A DNA stretch of 63,565 nt, filler included. It is 3 parts of 3 records of this genome, joined end to end, with 100 filler letters (N's around TTAATTAATTAA, not from the genome) between each part and the next. Parts side by side here need not be neighbours in the genome. Positions count along the whole stretch, not along the records: positions 18,124 to 47,905 come from SRR2962707_894; 2 more parts are not named here. One strand, written 5' to 3'. A model generated the notes under the pieces. That model was given only the letters and a program-made list of their open reading frames with translations. It was not told the origin of the DNA and did no database searches. Positions 29,680 to 36,659 of the stretch are shown here, one piece after another; position 1 is the stretch's first letter; every line of letters starts with the position of its first letter. Made by a program: the position numbers and the translations under genes.

Positions 29680-30225
29680 ATGAGATTTTGCCCACAATGC
29701 GGCCACGCAGTAGACATGATTATTCCTGAAAACGACAACCGAGTTCGTGCCGTTTGTCCGAATTGTGAGCACATTGACTATGACAACCCGCGCCTAATAA
29801 CCGGCACCATTCCTATGTACCAGGGCAAACTATTACTTTGCCGCAGAAACATAGAGCCGAGATTTGGCTATTGGACTTTGCCAGCCGGGTTCATGGAAAA
29901 CCAAGAAACCACAAGCGAAGGCGCCCTCAGAGAAACACTGGAAGAAAGCGGCTCTCACGCCATTTGCCGACAAGCTTTCAGCATGATCAGCATTCCTCAT
30001 ATCAATCAAATACATTTATTTTATTTGGCCGATTTGCAAAAGGATGATTTTCACGCCACATCAGAAAGCTCAGAAGTCGCACTGTTTGAACTGTCTGATA
30101 TTCCTTGGGACGAGTTGGCGTTCTCTAGCGTTACGAAAACACTAGAGCTCTTTATTGAGGATCATAAAACAGGAAATTATGGCTTCCATGAAGACACCCT
30201 GATCATTGACTCTGTATCTGAATAA
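29680..30225 (+). CDS. Zn-ribbon NUDIX hydrolase
   Basis: CPQCG..CPNC; Nudix box GFMENQETTSEGALRETLEE. Confidence 0.9.
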   Translation: MRFCPQCGHAVDMIIPENDNRVRAVCPNCEHIDYDNPRLITGTIPMYQGKLLLCRRNIEPRFGYWTLPAGFMENQETTSEGALRETLEESGSHAICRQAFSMISIPHINQIHLFYLADLQKDDFHATSESSEVALFELSDIPWDELAFSSVTKTLELFIEDHKTGNYGFHEDTLIIDSVSE

Positions 30226-30514
30226 AGTGATAAGCAACTTCCTCATAAGGGTGAGCACTGAGCAGCGCCCTTGTAACTTCCGCTTTCACGTCATCCTTAA
30301 GCACCATTTCCACTCGATACTCTTCTACTTTTTCTAACGCGCCCACTTCACCAAGAAAAGGGTTTGCATTCAGATTAGGACGAAATTGCCCTTCGCCTCT
30401 CACTTGCCAACAACACTGATCGTAATCGCCAATTGAGCCAGCACCAGCCAAAAACACCGCCGTTTTCACTGCCTCTAGATGCGTTTCTGGAACATAAAAC
30501 ACCAACGAGTACAT
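30203..30514 (-). CDS. YqfO/NIF3-related small PII-like protein
   Basis: FYVPETHLEAVK, GAGSIGDY, HPYEEVAY. Confidence 0.85.
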   Translation of the reverse strand: MYSLVFYVPETHLEAVKTAVFLAGAGSIGDYDQCCWQVRGEGQFRPNLNANPFLGEVGALEKVEEYRVEMVLKDDVKAEVTRALLSAHPYEEVAYHFIQIQSQ

Positions 30515-30683
30515 TGCGCCTTCTCCTGTTAATTTCACTTTTACTTTTCACTTCACTGCTTGCCTATTTAATGCCAAACAACGAACAAATCATAGGCGAA
30601 GACGATGGCAGCGAAAGAAGAAAAGCAAAAAAAAACGGCCAGCACCCTAAGCACCGACCGTCACACCAAGAAAGAAAAAGAGC

Positions 30684-31415
30684 TTAGTCCTCTGCATCAA
30701 GACCTAACGCTTCACGCACAATCGCATGCGCCAACAACTCAGAGGCATCGTATACCGGCAGAGACGTTTTTAACTGATCGCCAATTACCGACAATTCAGT
30801 ACACGCCAACACCAAACACTCAGCACCTTGCGCTTCTAAATCTTCCGCAGCTTGTTGGTAATTTTGCAATTGTTCTGGCGTCTGCCGCTTCGCTTTTACT
30901 GCGCGAATCAAAGCCATAACCTGCTGTTGTTTTTGTGACTCTGGATAAAGAACCTCGGCACCGTACTTGGCACACCAAGGCTCATACAGATGAATAATTT
31001 GCAGCGCCGAAGACGCCAATAAACCCACTTTCGTTAGATTAGGGTTCATCGCTTTCGCATGCCCAGCAGTCAGTTCAATCAAATTAAACACAGGCACATC
31101 AACCGCGGCGGCGATTTGAGGGTAATAATGGTGAGCCGTGTTGCAAGGAATGACCAAAAAGTCCGCTCCTTGCTTCACCAGCCCCTGTGCCATACCAATC
31201 AAACAAGGTACAGGATCTTCTCCACCACCTTCAATCAATGCTTTAATGCGAGACGGGATTTTCGGGTTATTGTCTACCAGCACATGAATGTGATCCACAT
31301 CATCGGCCGCCGGCGTCAGGTCAATAATGCGCTGCATTAAATCCACTGTTGCCTCAGGCCCCATGCCACCAATAACACCGACGACCTTCTCTTTACCCGC
31401 ACTTGCTGTCGCCAT
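30684..31415 (-). CDS. Asp/Glu racemase family enzyme (candidate cysteate racemase)
   Basis: GVIGGMGPEAT; two catalytic Cys in PCNTAH and ACTELS. Confidence 0.85.
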   Translation of the reverse strand: MATASAGKEKVVGVIGGMGPEATVDLMQRIIDLTPAADDVDHIHVLVDNNPKIPSRIKALIEGGGEDPVPCLIGMAQGLVKQGADFLVIPCNTAHHYYPQIAAAVDVPVFNLIELTAGHAKAMNPNLTKVGLLASSALQIIHLYEPWCAKYGAEVLYPESQKQQQVMALIRAVKAKRQTPEQLQNYQQAAEDLEAQGAECLVLACTELSVIGDQLKTSLPVYDASELLAHAIVREALGLDAED

Positions 31416-32605
31416 TATTCACACTCTCCTATTACTTCAACGATAATCTCAGCAATCAAGGCGCAATCCTCTTCACTAAAGGTCAATGGAATTCGCATGT
31501 CCAACAAGGAAGCCAGAATCTGCTCAGTTTTAGGCAACTTGGGTATATCTTCAAGATAACGCCAACTGTCATAACGGCTCGTGTAATCTTTCGGTTCGGC
31601 GTCACCAAACCACTTCAGCACCACCCCACGCTCGCCACAACGCTTAACGACATCAAGCATTTGGGGAGCACCGAATGAAGGCAAAGAAAACTGAATGGAA
31701 CTACCAACAAAGGCTTCCGCGGCCGGCCGCTCAGGAAGCAAAATATCAGCACAAGGCGTCAAAATAGCTTCAATCACACGATAACGACAACTCCAGCGCT
31801 CACATTGGGCATCTAAGTTCGCAATTTGAGGTCGTAAAATAGCCGCACGAAGATTGTCCATGCGACCACTGTAGTTCGGCGTATCAAATCGGATTTGTTC
31901 AAAGGCTTCTTTTGGCGGTGCTGCAAAGTGACGCTCATACAACATATAAGACCCAGAATACATAATGGCGCGCGCCATCACATCACTATGACGAGTGGTT
32001 AAAAAGCCACCTTCACCAGAATTGACATGCTTGTATGTTTGCGCACTAAAACACGCAATATCGCCAAATGTGCCGCTTTTCTTACCATTCCAACTGGCGC
32101 CCATGGTATGGGCACAATCTTCAATTAAAAACAAATGGTAGCGTTCACAGATCGCCATAATACGATCCATATCTGCCAAGTGCCCGCGCATATGAGAGAG
32201 CATAAAAAACTTAGCACCCGAGCTGGCAGCCTTCGATTCAAGGTCTTCTAAATCAATGCAATAATCATCCGCTACATCGACAAACACAGGCACTGCGCCA
32301 CTGTTATGAATAGAACCTGGAACAGGTGCCAGCGTAAAAGCGTTACACAAGACCTTATCGCCAGATTGCACGCCTGCGGCACGCATTGCGACATGCAGAG
32401 CGTAGCCACCAGAGGAGCAAGCCAAACAATAAGGCACGCCCTGATATTCCGCGAACTCGATTTCTAATAAATCTGTTTCGCTTTTTTCATCAGGAAGCGT
32501 GTTATAGCGATGCAATCGACCTGAACGCATCACATTAAGCGCCGCCGAAATGCCTTCTTCAGGGATCGCTTCCTGCTGAGTAAAGGGTTTATTGAATACT
32601 TTCAC
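31415..32605 (-). CDS. DegT/DnrJ/EryC1/StrS-fold PLP-dependent enzyme
   Basis: IEDCAHTMG, FSAQTYKHVNSGEGG; GTG start 32605 with GAGGAG SD. Confidence 0.88.
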   Translation of the reverse strand: MKVFNKPFTQQEAIPEEGISAALNVMRSGRLHRYNTLPDEKSETDLLEIEFAEYQGVPYCLACSSGGYALHVAMRAAGVQSGDKVLCNAFTLAPVPGSIHNSGAVPVFVDVADDYCIDLEDLESKAASSGAKFFMLSHMRGHLADMDRIMAICERYHLFLIEDCAHTMGASWNGKKSGTFGDIACFSAQTYKHVNSGEGGFLTTRHSDVMARAIMYSGSYMLYERHFAAPPKEAFEQIRFDTPNYSGRMDNLRAAILRPQIANLDAQCERWSCRYRVIEAILTPCADILLPERPAAEAFVGSSIQFSLPSFGAPQMLDVVKRCGERGVVLKWFGDAEPKDYTSRYDSWRYLEDIPKLPKTEQILASLLDMRIPLTFSEEDCALIAEIIVEVIGECE

Positions 32606-32615
32606 CGGCCACTCC

Positions 32616-33929
32616 TCAGTCGTAACGCTTCTGATCGTAGACAGTGAAGCCCCACTCTTTTTCAGGGAAGAATTTACGAAGTCGCCAATCACAAGCGCGG
32701 GCATGACCTTCCATACCTTCGGTACGAGAAATTCGTGAGCCTGCGCCACTGAACGCCAAGTTAGCCTCTTCATCCAACTCTTGATAGGTCAGCACTTTCA
32801 TAAACTTCTGTACGTTTAGACCACCACTGTAACGGGCGGCTTTTTTCGTTGGTAGAATATGATTGGTGCCTGAACACTTATCACCTTGGGTCACTGTGCT
32901 GCCTTCCCCTAAAAACAGAGAACCATAATTATTCAGATTGTTTTTCCACCAATCGAGATCCTGCGCCAAAATCTGCAAATGCTCACAGGCATATTCATCA
33001 CTAATGCGAACCAATTCATCACGATCATCAGCCAAAATCACCACACCATGATCACGCCACGCCGCTTCACAGACATCCGCATTGGGCATGTCTGCAATCA
33101 CATGAGGCATGATTTCAATGACTTTCTCGCCAATTTCACGACTGTCGGTAAATAGCCAAACCGGTGAGTTAGTTCCATGTTCCGCCTGTGACACAAGATC
33201 CACAGCAATGGTCATCGGGTCCGCTGTTTTGTCGGCAATAATGGCGGACTCCGTTGGTCCAGCAAACACATCAATGCCGACAGAGCCAAAGAGCATGCGC
33301 TTTGCTTCTGCCACATAGGCATTACCAGGCCCTACCAGAATGTCGGCTGGTTTCCCTGTAAATAAGCCTTTCGCCATAGTGGCAACCGCATGGACCCCAC
33401 CCATTTCGAGAATAACATCCGCCCCTGCGACGTCCATCGCATAAACCACAGCGGGGTTAACACTGTCACCACGTGGCGGTGAACAAGCCACCACAAAAGG
33501 CACACCAGCGGCTTTTGCCGTCGCCACACTCATTAGCGCAGAAGCGGCATGGGCATAACGGCCACCTGGCACATAACAGCCAGCGCATTGAACAGGAATA
33601 ACACGTTGCCCTAAGCGAACACCAGGCTCTGTTTCAATTTCAAAAGAAACCAAACTATTACGCTGAGCTTCAGCAAAACGCTTAATTTGACGGTGGGCAA
33701 AATCAATATCGTCTTTTACACTTTGTGGAACGCTGGCAATCAATGCCTGACGTTTTTCATCACTGAGAATGAATTCCCCCTGCCAGTTATCAAACTGCAG
33801 AGCATAGGCTTTAACAGCCTCTTCACCCTCTTCTTGAATTCGATGTAGCATGGTTTTTACTGCCGCTTGGATTTTTTCATCTTCATCCGCAACGACAGCA
33901 CCAGATACCGCATTTTTCAAATATTCCAT
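32616..33929 (-). CDS. HpsN-like (histidinol dehydrogenase family) sulfonate-alcohol dehydrogenase
   Basis: CYVPGGRY, VGPGNAYVAEAKR, DLVSQAEHG, GTNHILPT, EGMEGHARA; HpsN-type rather than HisD-type motifs. Confidence 0.82.
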   Translation of the reverse strand: MEYLKNAVSGAVVADEDEKIQAAVKTMLHRIQEEGEEAVKAYALQFDNWQGEFILSDEKRQALIASVPQSVKDDIDFAHRQIKRFAEAQRNSLVSFEIETEPGVRLGQRVIPVQCAGCYVPGGRYAHAASALMSVATAKAAGVPFVVACSPPRGDSVNPAVVYAMDVAGADVILEMGGVHAVATMAKGLFTGKPADILVGPGNAYVAEAKRMLFGSVGIDVFAGPTESAIIADKTADPMTIAVDLVSQAEHGTNSPVWLFTDSREIGEKVIEIMPHVIADMPNADVCEAAWRDHGVVILADDRDELVRISDEYACEHLQILAQDLDWWKNNLNNYGSLFLGEGSTVTQGDKCSGTNHILPTKKAARYSGGLNVQKFMKVLTYQELDEEANLAFSGAGSRISRTEGMEGHARACDWRLRKFFPEKEWGFTVYDQKRYD

Positions 33930-34085
33930 AAAGCACCTCTCACTGTTCTGAGGACCCTTTAGCGCCGCTCAATTGGCTCGCATGCTAGGGCTATACTCAA
34001 GACCAAACGCCTCTTTGTAACCCAATCAAATGGGTTACCACCTATGTAATCAGAGAAATTAAATTCGTCGCACCGTGTTCTGATA

Positions 34086-34163
34086 CTAATGAGGCCTTGC
34101 CGTTGGCTCAAAGAACCTTGTTAGCAGAACAAAATAGCATCGAAAGAAACTGGGAAGCTGCAT
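34086..34163 (-). CDS. Possible 25-aa leader peptide MQLPSFFRCYFVLLTRFFEPTARPH
   Basis: AGGGG SD 7 nt before ATG; lies between the predicted promoter and the dehydrogenase gene. Confidence 0.3.
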   Translation of the reverse strand: MQLPSFFRCYFVLLTRFFEPTARPH

Positions 34164-34229
34164 TGCATTACCCCTATAGATTTATTCTTATATGTTTGAA
34201 TACAGATATTCTTCCTTGAGTAAGCCTTC

Positions 34230-34297
34230 ACCTTAGAGATTTACGCAATCCGAGACCAATGCCTTTTTTGATCGCGATCGGTTACTTTTTCGCATAG
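34230..34297 (-). promoter_or_regulatory. LysR-type operator plus promoter of the dehydrogenase operon
   Basis: CTATGCGAAAAAGTAACCGA..GCATTGG, then TTGGTC-N18-TAAGGT; duplicates the element upstream of cuyA. Confidence 0.7.
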
Positions 34298-34556
34298 GGT
34301 AATGTGCCGTGCTGGACGCCTTTTAAACGCGCTTAAAAAACCTATTCTGAAGATTTTTAGCCTTCAAAAACAAAAAGATAGGCTATTAACCACCCTCTTC
34401 CTCCAGAGTTTTTTAAGCCCTTAAAGTCGCCACGCCTTTCTGACCTCTGAAAACCCTCCAGCAATTAGGCGGATGATCACTTGTGTTTGCACTTAGTATG
34501 GTAAAAAAACAGGCAGCAGGACGCTCATCTTTGATGAAAATGCCCCTCTGAAAACA

Positions 34557-34584
34557 AAAAAGGCGTCATTTATAGTGACGCCCT
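34557..34584 (-). terminator. Terminator of the LysR gene
   Basis: aaaaaaggcgtca-tttatag-tgacgcc. Confidence 0.65.
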
Positions 34585-34592
34585 TCTGATAC

Positions 34593-35498
34593 TTAACACG
34601 CAGATTCATACAGCGTTGAAAGGTAATGCCAAAAACGTTCCGAAAAGTCGGAGTGTTTGCCTTTAAATCGGTAAATATTGATATCGAGATCGATCGATTT
34701 AAGAGGGGACTCCAGCACCGCCATACGATTTTCATCCAATTCGTTTTGAACTAAAGACTCAGGCAGCCAAGCGACCCCATAACCTTTCGCAACCAAAGCC
34801 TTTAACCCTTCAGCCAATGCATTTTCACATACCTTGTTGAGCGTCAGCTCACTGCCGGGTTCCGACAAACATTCGGGAGTTAGTAAACTGCCTAAAAACG
34901 ATTCTTTAGGGTAAGTAAGCCACCTTAGACTCTCTTGCGTCACACTATAAACCGGATCGCCGTCAGGCTTGACCGCCGTGACAGGCACAATACGATCCGT
35001 GGTAATTTGGATCGTCTCTATGTCATCTCGATCCAATTGTCTAAAAATATCGGGGGAAGAAAAGCACAATAGAAAGTCGCCCGCACCGGCCAAAAAAGAC
35101 TCCAAAGAATCGTGCAAGTTGTCCGTATTAACTCGAATCAGCGAGTCACCAATAAAAGGCTCGATTTGTTCTAACCAATCTGGGACGAAGGAAACGGCCA
35201 ACGAATGCTGTGACATAACGACCATCTCTGCCGTATCGTTCACCAAAGACGTTAAATGGTTGCGCGAGGCGTAAATTTGTTTGGTTAGGCTTTCTGCCTG
35301 CTCTAAAAAAGCCGAGCCCGCCTCCGTAAACGTAGTGGGATATTGAGTGCGATCGACCAAGCTCACACCGAGCCAATTTTCCAACGATCGAATGCGCCGA
35401 CTAAATGCGGGCTGAGTCACAAAGCGCGCTTCTGCGGCCTTCGAGAAACTGCCATTTTTGGCTAACGCCAGATAATCTTCTAACCACTTTAGCTCCAC
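34593..35498 (-). CDS. LysR family transcriptional regulator (CuyR-like)
   Basis: ELKWLEDY..SFSKAAEARFVTQPAFSRRIRSLE; divergent from cuyA. Confidence 0.92.
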   Translation of the reverse strand: MELKWLEDYLALAKNGSFSKAAEARFVTQPAFSRRIRSLENWLGVSLVDRTQYPTTFTEAGSAFLEQAESLTKQIYASRNHLTSLVNDTAEMVVMSQHSLAVSFVPDWLEQIEPFIGDSLIRVNTDNLHDSLESFLAGAGDFLLCFSSPDIFRQLDRDDIETIQITTDRIVPVTAVKPDGDPVYSVTQESLRWLTYPKESFLGSLLTPECLSEPGSELTLNKVCENALAEGLKALVAKGYGVAWLPESLVQNELDENRMAVLESPLKSIDLDINIYRFKGKHSDFSERFWHYLSTLYESAC

Positions 35499-35541
35499 GG
35501 GACACCCTTTCTAAAACTGCCTTTTTTCGATGTTAGCATTG

Positions 35542-35608
35542 CTATGCTGAAAAGTAACCGAGACAAGATAAAACAGCATTGGGCAGTAGAAAATGGAGCC
35601 TGTAATCT
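35542..35608 (+). promoter_or_regulatory. LysR-type operator plus promoter of cuyA
   Basis: CTATGCTGAAAAGTAACCGA..GCATTGG, TTGGGC-N18-TAATCT. Confidence 0.7.
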
Positions 35609-35648
35609 CTAAATCAACTTAACGTCATCCCTTTATGGAGATATACCT

Positions 35649-36659
35649 ATGCATCTTTCTCGCTTCCCTCGATTACATTTTGCCCACTTAGCCACCCCCC
35701 TTGAGCCAATGACACGATTAAGCGAACACTTAGGCGGCCCTAAGTTATGGATTAAGCGCGATGACTGCACTGGTTTAGCGGGTGGCGGCAACAAAACACG
35801 TAAACTGGAATTTCTCATGGGAGACGCCATCGAAAAAGGCGCAGACACCATTATTACTCAAGGTGCGACCCAATCTAACCACGCTCGCCAAACCGCGGCC
35901 ATTGCCACCAAAATGGGCATGGCGTGTGAAATTCTGTTAGAAGACCGTACCGGCAGTAAGGACGTGGATTACAACTACAATGGCAATGTGTTGCTCGATC
36001 AACTGTTTGGCGCCACGCTCAGTAAATACCCAGCGGGCACCGACATGAATCAAGCCATGGAAGAAGTGGCTGAAAAACTGCGTAAAGCAGGCAAGAAGCC
36101 ATACATTATTCCAGGGGGTGGCTCCAACCCAATTGGCGCACTTGGCTACGTGAACGCCGCGCTTGAATTGCTAGCTCAAGCCAATGACATGGGACTCAAA
36201 ATCGACCGTGTGGTTCATGCAACAGGCAGCGCAGGCACACAAGCAGGTTTGGTCACCGGCTTGGTGGCCACCAACAGTCTAATTCCAGTATTGGGCATTG
36301 GGGTGCGTGTACCGCAAGAAACCCAAGAAGCGAATGTATTTCGCTTGGCTGAAAAAACCGCAGAATATTTAAGCATTCCTGGTGTAGTGAAGCGCGAAGA
36401 CGTGGTGGCGAATTGCAACTACGTGGGCGATGGCTACGGCATCCCAACGCAAAGTGGGTTAGAAGCCATTGAGTTATTTGCGCAGTACGAATCTATCTTG
36501 CTGGACCCTGTGTATTCTGCGAAAGGCGCCGCAGGCCTAATTGACTTGATTCGCAAAGGCGAATTTGGCAAAGATGAAAACATCGTCTTCCTACACACAG
36601 GTGGCAGCCAAGCGTTATTTGGTTACCGAGAAGCCTTTGATTTTAAAGATTATTGCTAA
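35649..36659 (+). CDS. cuyA: Cysteate sulfo-lyase (D-cysteine desulfhydrase/ACC deaminase family)
   Basis: [50 protein letters not shown], matching CuyA as I recall it; sulfonate gene context. Confidence 0.8.

Follow-up and report, generated by a model that had tools for sequence, protein, structure and literature searches.

The subject of this analysis is a five-gene cluster at positions 30684–36659 of a 63,565-nucleotide stretch of DNA (hereafter the window). Judged from its sequence, the cluster very probably constitutes the complete enzymatic core of the published degradation pathway for D-cysteinolate (cysteinolic acid), which runs through CuyC, HpsN, CuyB and CuyA (PMC12814064; Liu et al., J Biol Chem, December 2025). 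That paper starts from the same gene association (a HpsN homologue, a PF01041 enzyme, CuyB and CuyA) and names aerobic marine Gammaproteobacteria including Oceanospirillaceae as carriers of the cluster; full-text literature searches found no other paper on a cysteinolate degradation route. The original prediction, made from the letters of the window, had read the genes as a path from cysteinolic acid through cysteate to sulfite with stereo-inversions, and had allowed that a related route may already be reported. The window proteins match the families of the published route and, since PMC12814064 describes the same route, the hypothesis was correct and already in print. The attribution to a Marinomonas-like genome also held, the top named homologue of the DegT protein being from Marinomonas pollencensis (88%) and one congeneric locus being from Marinomonas phaeophyticola.

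In the route proposed for the window, D-cysteinolate released by algae would be imported by a transporter encoded outside the cluster and epimerised to L-cysteinolate by CuyC, a DegT-fold enzyme dependent on pyridoxal 5'-phosphate (PLP). HpsN, a Zn/NAD+ enzyme of the HisD family, would carry out the four-electron alcohol oxidation of L-cysteinolate to L-cysteate, which the two-Cys racemase CuyB would convert to D-cysteate, and the PLP enzyme CuyA would eliminate sulfite from D-cysteate to give pyruvate and ammonia. These activities have been shown with orthologues from Bilophila, B. wadsworthia and R. pomeroyi. As described in PMC12814064, purified HpsN from Bilophila sp. 4_1_30 used L-cysteinolate best and (R)-2,3-dihydroxypropane-1-sulfonate (DHPS) at a lower level, and did not oxidise D-cysteinolate; oxidation of L-cysteinolate to L-cysteate is given there for the Bilophila sp. 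4_1_30 enzyme only. According to the same text Bilophila CuyC (PF01041) racemises D- to L-cysteinolate: it exchanges the alpha-proton of D-cysteinolate and enables HpsN to act on the D-isomer. Further, CuyB makes D-cysteate, CuyA cleaves D-cysteate, and Desulfovibrio litoralis respires with D-cysteinolate. We infer identical substrates for the Marinomonas enzymes, binding of the regulator to the element described below, and the fate of the sulfite: as the Marinomonas host is aerobic, sulfite would be a waste product and not, as in Bilophila and D. litoralis, a respiratory electron acceptor.

Assignment of the lyase and the cysteate racemase

By its sequence the product of 35649–36659 is CuyA, for which a preference for D-cysteate is predicted. 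It scored 559 bits on the NCBIfam model for D-cysteate sulfo-lyase CuyA (NF052482; cut-off 450) and remained below the cut-offs (in brackets) of three DcyD models, with 333.4 (429), 298.8 (610) and 294.3 (469) bits, and of the 1-aminocyclopropane-1-carboxylate deaminase equivalog, with 266.4 (392) bits. Amino acid identity was 69.7% over 333 residues to the characterised CuyA encoded on the megaplasmid of Ruegeria pomeroyi DSS-3 and 46.5% to DcyD of E. coli. The active-site residues named in PMC11193023 (StDcyD Asn50-Lys51, Ser78-Asn79, Tyr287 and Thr315) are kept, the motifs GGNK, QSNH, DPVY and HTGG being identical between the window lyase and 4d8t/4d97 in the alignment. Specificity of CuyA for D-cysteate is described in PMC11193023. 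PDB entry 7ysk, deposited under the name 'D-cysteine desulfhydrase', scored 448 bits against the window CuyA, compared with 279 for Salmonella DcyD, and may from its sequence be a CuyA-type enzyme.

The racemase scored 289.4 bits on the CuyB equivalog NF052483 (cut-off 190) and 52.6 bits on the aspartate/glutamate racemase equivalog, for which the cut-off is 417. Its motifs PCNTAH and ACTE align with both Cys motifs of the Pyrococcus aspartate racemase 1jfl, the cysteines of which we take to be catalytic. The earlier description as a two-Cys Asp/Glu racemase is thereby upheld, and the protein is predicted to be the cysteate racemase CuyB, acting on cysteate.

Assignment of the dehydrogenase

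In a PDB search the dehydrogenase scored 516 bits to HpsN of Cupriavidus pinatubonensis (CpHpsN; 8v35), to which it is 56.7% identical; among true HisD entries the top score was 250 bits (4g07). The DHPS dehydrogenases (HpsN) are separated from HisD by the sulfonate-recognising His126, and Glu318, His319 and Asp352 are also named (PMC11382572); in the window protein H127 (in GRYAH), E316-H317 and D349 align with CpHpsN His126, Glu318-His319 and Asp352. The assayed Bilophila HpsN is 55% identical to CpHpsN (PMC12814064), which makes the window HpsN (56.7%) comparable to it. The protein is thus closer to CpHpsN than to HisD and retains the His of GRYAH, as expected for the 'HpsN-like' enzyme of the original prediction, and its sequence points to L-cysteinolate, together with (R)-DHPS, as the probable substrates.

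Two further HisD-family genes were considered in G001, a near-identical genome that carries the same locus with 98.6–100% protein identity. One is a separate hisD, 33% identical to the window HpsN, which scored 567.8 bits on PF00815 compared with 435.2; with this better-scoring copy present, and with the window copy carrying the sulfonate His and sitting in an accessory insertion, the window protein was not taken for the HisD of the histidine pathway. The other (G001:C4:745205-746464; L009 9197-10510) is 46% identical to the window HpsN and 45% to CpHpsN, and clusters with a LacI regulator, a short-chain dehydrogenase/reductase (SDR) and sugar-type ATP-binding cassette (ABC) permeases. It was rejected as a DHPS HpsN, because GKYPM replaces GRYAH and the sulfonate His is missing.

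Assignment of the DegT-fold enzyme

The DegT protein matched PF01041 at 193 bits. It reached no NCBIfam equivalog cut-off (best PseC, 128.9 compared with 423.5), and the solved structures closest to it, at about 127 bits, are those of sugar aminotransferases. K192, in the motif KH-x-N-x-GEGG, is invariant in 12/12 aligned family members, down to 41% identity. We take this residue to be the Schiff-base lysine of the DegT family. The operational definition of CuyC in PMC12814064 is a PF01041 protein within 5 open reading frames (ORFs) of HpsN, CuyB or CuyA, and the window gene lies directly between hpsN and cuyB and two genes from cuyA. The sequence similarity network cluster of that paper was drawn at E up to 1e-110 (about 45% identity), and its extended data list 911 CuyC sequences. 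By sequence and by analogy with the Bilophila enzyme, the DegT-fold protein is a candidate for the first racemase of the route, not an aminotransferase.

In an exhaustive search of cluster representatives with CuyC, 393 matched at an E of 1e-30 or lower, and the window protein is 55.5% identical to the copy in a Leisingera plasmid cluster. For the genomic context analysis one genome per species was used; confirmed matches numbered at least 596, of which the best 80 were retrieved with flanks of up to 8 kb per side; partner genes were searched by tblastn at a query coverage of at least 60% and an identity of at least 50% for HpsN, 55% for CuyA and 40% for CuyB. Within the fetched flanks of these best 80 loci HpsN was found in 18, CuyB in 11, CuyA in nine and all three together in four, and 56/80 had none of the three, several of the flanks being shorter than 8 kb. 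The partner-less loci are almost all alphaproteobacterial, as PMC12814064 likewise reports. In seven Desulfobacterota loci (L080, L096, L100, L104, L110, L118 and L120) hpsN lies directly upstream of a CuyC homologue that is 55–61% identical to the window CuyC, compared with the threshold of about 45% in the paper. Two metagenomic proteins (P0130, 826 aa; P0157, 673 aa, partial) are natural fusions of an HpsN-like Histidinol_dh domain and a CuyC-like DegT domain, and support a direct metabolic hand-over between both enzymes. Two other metagenomic proteins are a HAD-hydrolase fused to a CuyC-like domain (P0125) and a CuyC-like part preceded by an unassigned 360-residue N-terminal extension (P0124).

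Regulator and candidate operator

The LysR-type protein passed no NCBIfam equivalog; it is 52.7% identical to the LysR of the cluster on the Pseudomonas plasmid pMPC6-328K and 26% to the LysR beside cuyA of R. pomeroyi. A 20-nt inverted match joins both promoter regions of the cluster. With up to 3 mismatches allowed, its 18-nt core (TATGC-N-GAAAAGTAACCG) has only two occurrences in the 63.5-kb window, against a mean of 0.32 in mononucleotide shuffles, and both copies are oriented toward their own gene, cuyA or hpsN. Genome-wide in G001 and in G028, a second Marinomonas carrier, the two cluster copies and no more were found at up to 1 mismatch; sites with 2 mismatches were as frequent as with a reversed-pattern control. 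The cuyA/lysR intergenic region is 93% identical to its G028 counterpart.

With 0–2 mismatches the element adjoins the LysR gene in 12/89 other loci scanned, from several genera: the Marinomonas genomes G001, G028, G064 and G049, the Pseudomonas plasmid, Amphritea, Pontibacterium, Aliamphritea, Neptunomonas, Arenicella, where it stands before both units, Grimontia and Enterovibrio. It was absent from the scanned loci with a more divergent LysR (the Marinomonas genomes G025 and G056, and Vibrio brasiliensis). This pattern suggests that the element is the predicted operator of the cluster LysR regulator, and that the layout in the window would be a split operon kept under common control. The regulator, divergent from cuyA, would probably activate the cuyA and hpsN-cuyC-cuyB units through one 18-nt operator each.

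The words for regulator and transporter do not occur in PMC12814064 (0 occurrences each). We put forward only tentatively, as a possibility somewhat short of even, that the LysR and its conserved operator form a dedicated cysteinolate/cysteate sensor circuit common to Marinomonas, Oceanospirillales relatives, Vibrionaceae and the conjugative Pseudomonas plasmid; that in Marinomonas the operon was split and co-regulation kept via operator duplication; and that this stripped-down version, with neither a TRAP (tripartite ATP-independent periplasmic) transporter nor CuyZ, would rely on a kind of importer not yet linked to cysteinolate.

The 663-bp region 5' of hpsN is partly conserved, in G028 only. 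Stop-to-stop frames of at least 80 residues from ten related loci were run against it by tblastn in search of a pseudogene, which was rejected since the matches were at chance level (best E 0.014); Rfam gave no match anywhere in the window. At 34017–34038 in this region, about 90–110 nt upstream of the hpsN start, is an inverted repeat of 8 nt without mismatch (GTAACCCA/TGGGTTAC; spacer 6 nt), which has GTAAC in common with the 18-nt element.

Organization of the locus

Five ORFs were confirmed by the ORF list and Pfam at 30684–36659, where they had first been placed, and of the earlier five-gene observation only the start of the DegT gene was corrected. The genes form the transcription units hpsN-cuyC-cuyB, lysR and cuyA (Table 1). 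The DegT ORF as first listed (31415–32773, minus strand) overlapped the dehydrogenase ORF by 158 nt. Most likely, to judge from the sequence, cuyC starts at a GTG at 32605, preceded by GGAG and 10 nt past the dehydrogenase stop; given this start the overlap is not real and results from the ORF list having used the first start codon in frame, and the 396-aa product fits the length range of homologues (393–415 aa in the best 120 matches, all of them at least 72% identical). The DegT stop and the racemase ATG have one base in common, at 31415, in keeping with the 'tightly coupled' operon of the original prediction. The LysR gene divergent from a CuyA-like lyase and the housekeeping surroundings were likewise borne out by the ORF list and Pfam, and no gene for SuyAB, SlcC/D or ComC lies within the cluster, as had been claimed.

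Table 1. Features of the cluster in the window, in order of position.
Feature	Position	Strand	Details
Terminator-like hairpin, 13-bp stem + T-run	30634..30662	-	22 nt past cuyB stop
cuyB, predicted cysteate racemase, 243 aa	30684..31415	-	PF01177 (Asp_Glu_race); NCBIfam equivalog NF052483
cuyC, candidate PLP-dependent cysteinolate racemase, 396 aa, GTG start	31415..32605	-	PF01041 (DegT_DnrJ_EryC1)
hpsN, HisD-family four-electron dehydrogenase, 437 aa	32616..33929	-	Histidinol_dh (Pfam); PDB 8v35 match
663-bp non-coding region 5' of hpsN (promoter + leader)	33930..34592	-	no ORF >50 aa
18-nt element copy 2, candidate LysR operator	34279..34296	-	~350 nt upstream of hpsN ATG
Terminator-like hairpin, 12-bp stem + T-run	34557..34587	-	directly 3' of lysR stop
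LysR-type transcriptional regulator, 301 aa	34593..35498	-	PF00126 (HTH_1); PF03466 (LysR_substrate)
18-nt element copy 1, candidate LysR operator	35543..35560	+	89 nt upstream of cuyA ATG, 45 nt upstream of lysR GTG
cuyA, D-cysteate sulfo-lyase, 336 aa	35649..36659	+	PALP (Pfam); NCBIfam equivalog NF052482

The hairpin past cuyB is the probable end of the hpsN-cuyC-cuyB transcript. The cluster is flanked by housekeeping genes, with Ffh, RimM, TrmD, a CcsA-like protein, CorC and Nudix on one side and DUF72, GreB, MscS, IMPase and DinB on the other. At the border of the insertion described next, a 111-aa ORF with no Pfam match (30203–30538, minus strand) separates the Nudix gene from the cuyB terminator.

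Insertion site and distribution among relatives

CuyC was detected at E up to 1e-50 in 6/64 species genomes of the genus (6/61 high-quality genomes). As the Nudix and DUF72 genes are adjacent, the site being empty, in 5/5 CuyC-lacking congeners examined, the cluster is read as an insertion of about 6.5 kb between them. This insertion site is common to the window lineage and G028. Flanking repeats and an integrase were sought as mobile-element borders, and these were discarded when only short, chance-level repeats were found.

In the other four Marinomonas carriers (G064, G049, G025 and G056) the cluster lies elsewhere and in other arrangements, with cuyA-hpsN-cuyC-cuyB co-directional. G064 and G049 have lysR-cuyA-hpsN-cuyC-cuyB in one direction, and G025 and G056 have a different LysR (44–45% identical) divergent from cuyA-hpsN-cuyC-cuyB. 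The hpsN match of G025 (L019 8457-9765) consists of two overlapping pieces in different frames, which points to a frameshift in the gene or else to a mistake in the assembly. Beyond the genus, the mobilizable Leisingera plasmid has the order cuyA-cuyC-cuyB-hpsN-cuyZ, and the same TRAP system as in the pMPC6-328K cluster is present in the cluster of three Vibrionaceae loci and three Desulfobacterota loci.

Transport, sulfite fate and other sulfonate routes

Immediately upstream of lysR-cuyA-hpsN-cuyC-cuyB in G064 (L017 4549-8381) are a gene for an SDR and those for a tripartite transporter, TctCBA, with an 18-nt element between tctA and lysR that is oriented toward tctA, so that TctCBA may be a cluster-associated transporter in that species. 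As a cysteinolate importer in general it was set aside as not diagnostic, because a copy is present in G001 (75% identical), G025 and G028 yet absent from the carrier G056. An importer was also sought through the genome-wide operator scan, but with 1 mismatch or fewer G001 and G028 have no site beyond the two in the cluster. With regard to sulfite, a protein of the YeiH family (34% identity to plasmid CuyZ) was found in G001, as were ten matches to the TauE family and a single one to Oxidored_molyb, none of them cluster-linked. A query with CpSuyB found no homologue of SuyB in G001, and for Xsc no match exceeded the family cut-off; on these two queries CuyA is the only known sulfo-lyase found in that genome.

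Alternative explanations

Several observations weigh against the cysteinolate assignment. The dehydrogenase also exceeds the cut-off of the TIGR00069 hisD 'equivalog_domain' model (420.5 compared with 243.8), and, as (R)-DHPS too is a substrate of the HpsN assayed from Bilophila, the window HpsN may prefer either cysteinolate or DHPS. No importer, sulfite exporter or oxidase gene was found in or beside the window cluster, and neither G001 nor G028 has a close homologue of the binding protein of the TRAP system in the plasmid cluster (30–31% identity, best in G001 31%). The candidate operator on the hpsN side is unusually far from the start codon, at about 350 nt. Terminator-like hairpins in the whole region were not above chance (6 found, 7.1 expected from shuffles), nor was a promoter scan of the whole region; since the scan total is no higher than in shuffles, it is their position at gene ends that speaks for the hairpins in Table 1.

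The cluster might instead serve DHPS, with HpsN oxidising (R)-DHPS to sulfolactate, which would pass to sulfopyruvate, a DegT aminotransferase forming cysteate, and CuyB and CuyA cleaving it, as proposed for R. pomeroyi. We consider this unlikely. The similarity of the dehydrogenase to the DHPS enzyme CpHpsN, including the shared motif, the lower but real (R)-DHPS activity of the assayed Bilophila enzyme (PMC12814064), the predominance of aminotransferases in PF01041 and the induction of R. pomeroyi CuyA on DHPS (PMC13335735) would all agree with it; yet the cluster holds no sulfolactate dehydrogenase of the SlcD/ComC type and no HpsO or HpsP, and a CuyC orthologue was shown to exchange cysteinolate's alpha-proton and to make the D-isomer accessible to HpsN (PMC12814064). 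The adjacency and the fusion of HpsN and CuyC further argue for sequential action on one molecule, and the G001 paralogue that does lie beside SDR and LacI genes is without the sulfonate His.

It is very unlikely that cuyB and cuyA alone serve sulfonate metabolism, in the use of L-cysteate, with hpsN and cuyC acting on a different amino alcohol. Such a division would fit cuyA being a transcription unit of its own in the window, as well as the 56 of the best 80 cuyC loci with no partner in the fetched flanks, and no cysteinolate specificity residues are known; but translational coupling ties cuyB to cuyC and hpsN, the same candidate operator precedes both units, the sulfonate-binding His of HpsN is conserved, and four other Marinomonas species hold cuyA-hpsN-cuyC-cuyB as one co-directional block. 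Scarcely credible is the annotation at face value, by which the genes would share no pathway and would encode a surplus histidinol dehydrogenase, an aminotransferase for sugars, an aspartate racemase and a D-cysteine desulfhydrase. The TIGR00069 score of 420.5 bits would allow it, and public records do label close homologues so: the original prediction had expected the labels hisD, degT and dcyD, and an 80–84% identical plasmid copy is indeed labelled hisD, aminotransferase, D-cysteine desulfhydrase and amino acid racemase. Against it, the lyase passed the CuyA model and fell below all D-cysteine desulfhydrase equivalogs, G001 has its separate, better-scoring hisD, and the gene set is conserved across phyla and present on plasmids.

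Significance

Cysteinolate is among the most abundant marine sulfonates (PMC12814064). The biochemistry of the pathway has so far been that of enzymes of anaerobic sulfite and sulfate reducers only, and according to PMC12814064 it has yet to be validated by experiment that aerobic marine bacteria use cysteinolate. As an aerobic model, a cultivable Marinomonas whose cluster is compact and single-copy would be convenient, and the candidate operator provides a handle for reporter assays and for the re-annotation of genes labelled hisD, degT and dcyD. The picture of the pathway is unchanged by the locus, which is an additional, slightly rearranged example; specific to the window are the place of insertion, the division into two units that goes with a duplication of the candidate operator, and the absence of the importer and exporter genes of fuller clusters.

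Comparison with known systems

The hpsN-cuyC-cuyA-cuyB clusters of Bilophila sp. 4_1_30 and D. litoralis consist of the same four families (PF00815, PF01041, PF01177 and PF00291), with hpsN directly followed by cuyC as in the window; compared by family rather than by direct identity, the window differs in having its genes in two units, probably under a LysR, and no transporter. The cuyR-cuyA-cuyZ locus of R. pomeroyi DSS-3 also has a LysR gene divergent from cuyA, but unlike the window it includes the YeiH-type putative exporter CuyZ, with a TRAP system next door, and has no hpsN, cuyC or cuyB. With the DHPS cluster hpsRNOUP-suyAB of C. pinatubonensis (PMC11382572) the window has in common an HpsN with GRYAH and the catalytic Glu-His and Asp. 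That cluster further comprises a LacI regulator, HpsO/HpsP, a major facilitator superfamily importer and SuyAB, all of which the window cluster is without, and no PLP enzymes.

The closest full relative found is located on pMPC6-328K, a conjugative plasmid of the Antarctic Pseudomonas sp. MPC6 (NZ_CP034782.1; L030, 249132-268136). Its proteins are 80.6% (CuyA), 83.5% (HpsN), 65.3% (CuyC), 64.6% (CuyB) and 52.7% (LysR) identical to those of the window, and an exact match to the 18-nt element lies upstream of its cuyA. Gene order on the plasmid is lysR followed by cuyA-cuyZ-hpsN-cuyC-dctPQM-cuyB in one block, which is the most complete version, and nearby are genes for a TauE exporter and for a sulfite oxidase, the latter with cytochrome c; these the window cluster has lost or never had.

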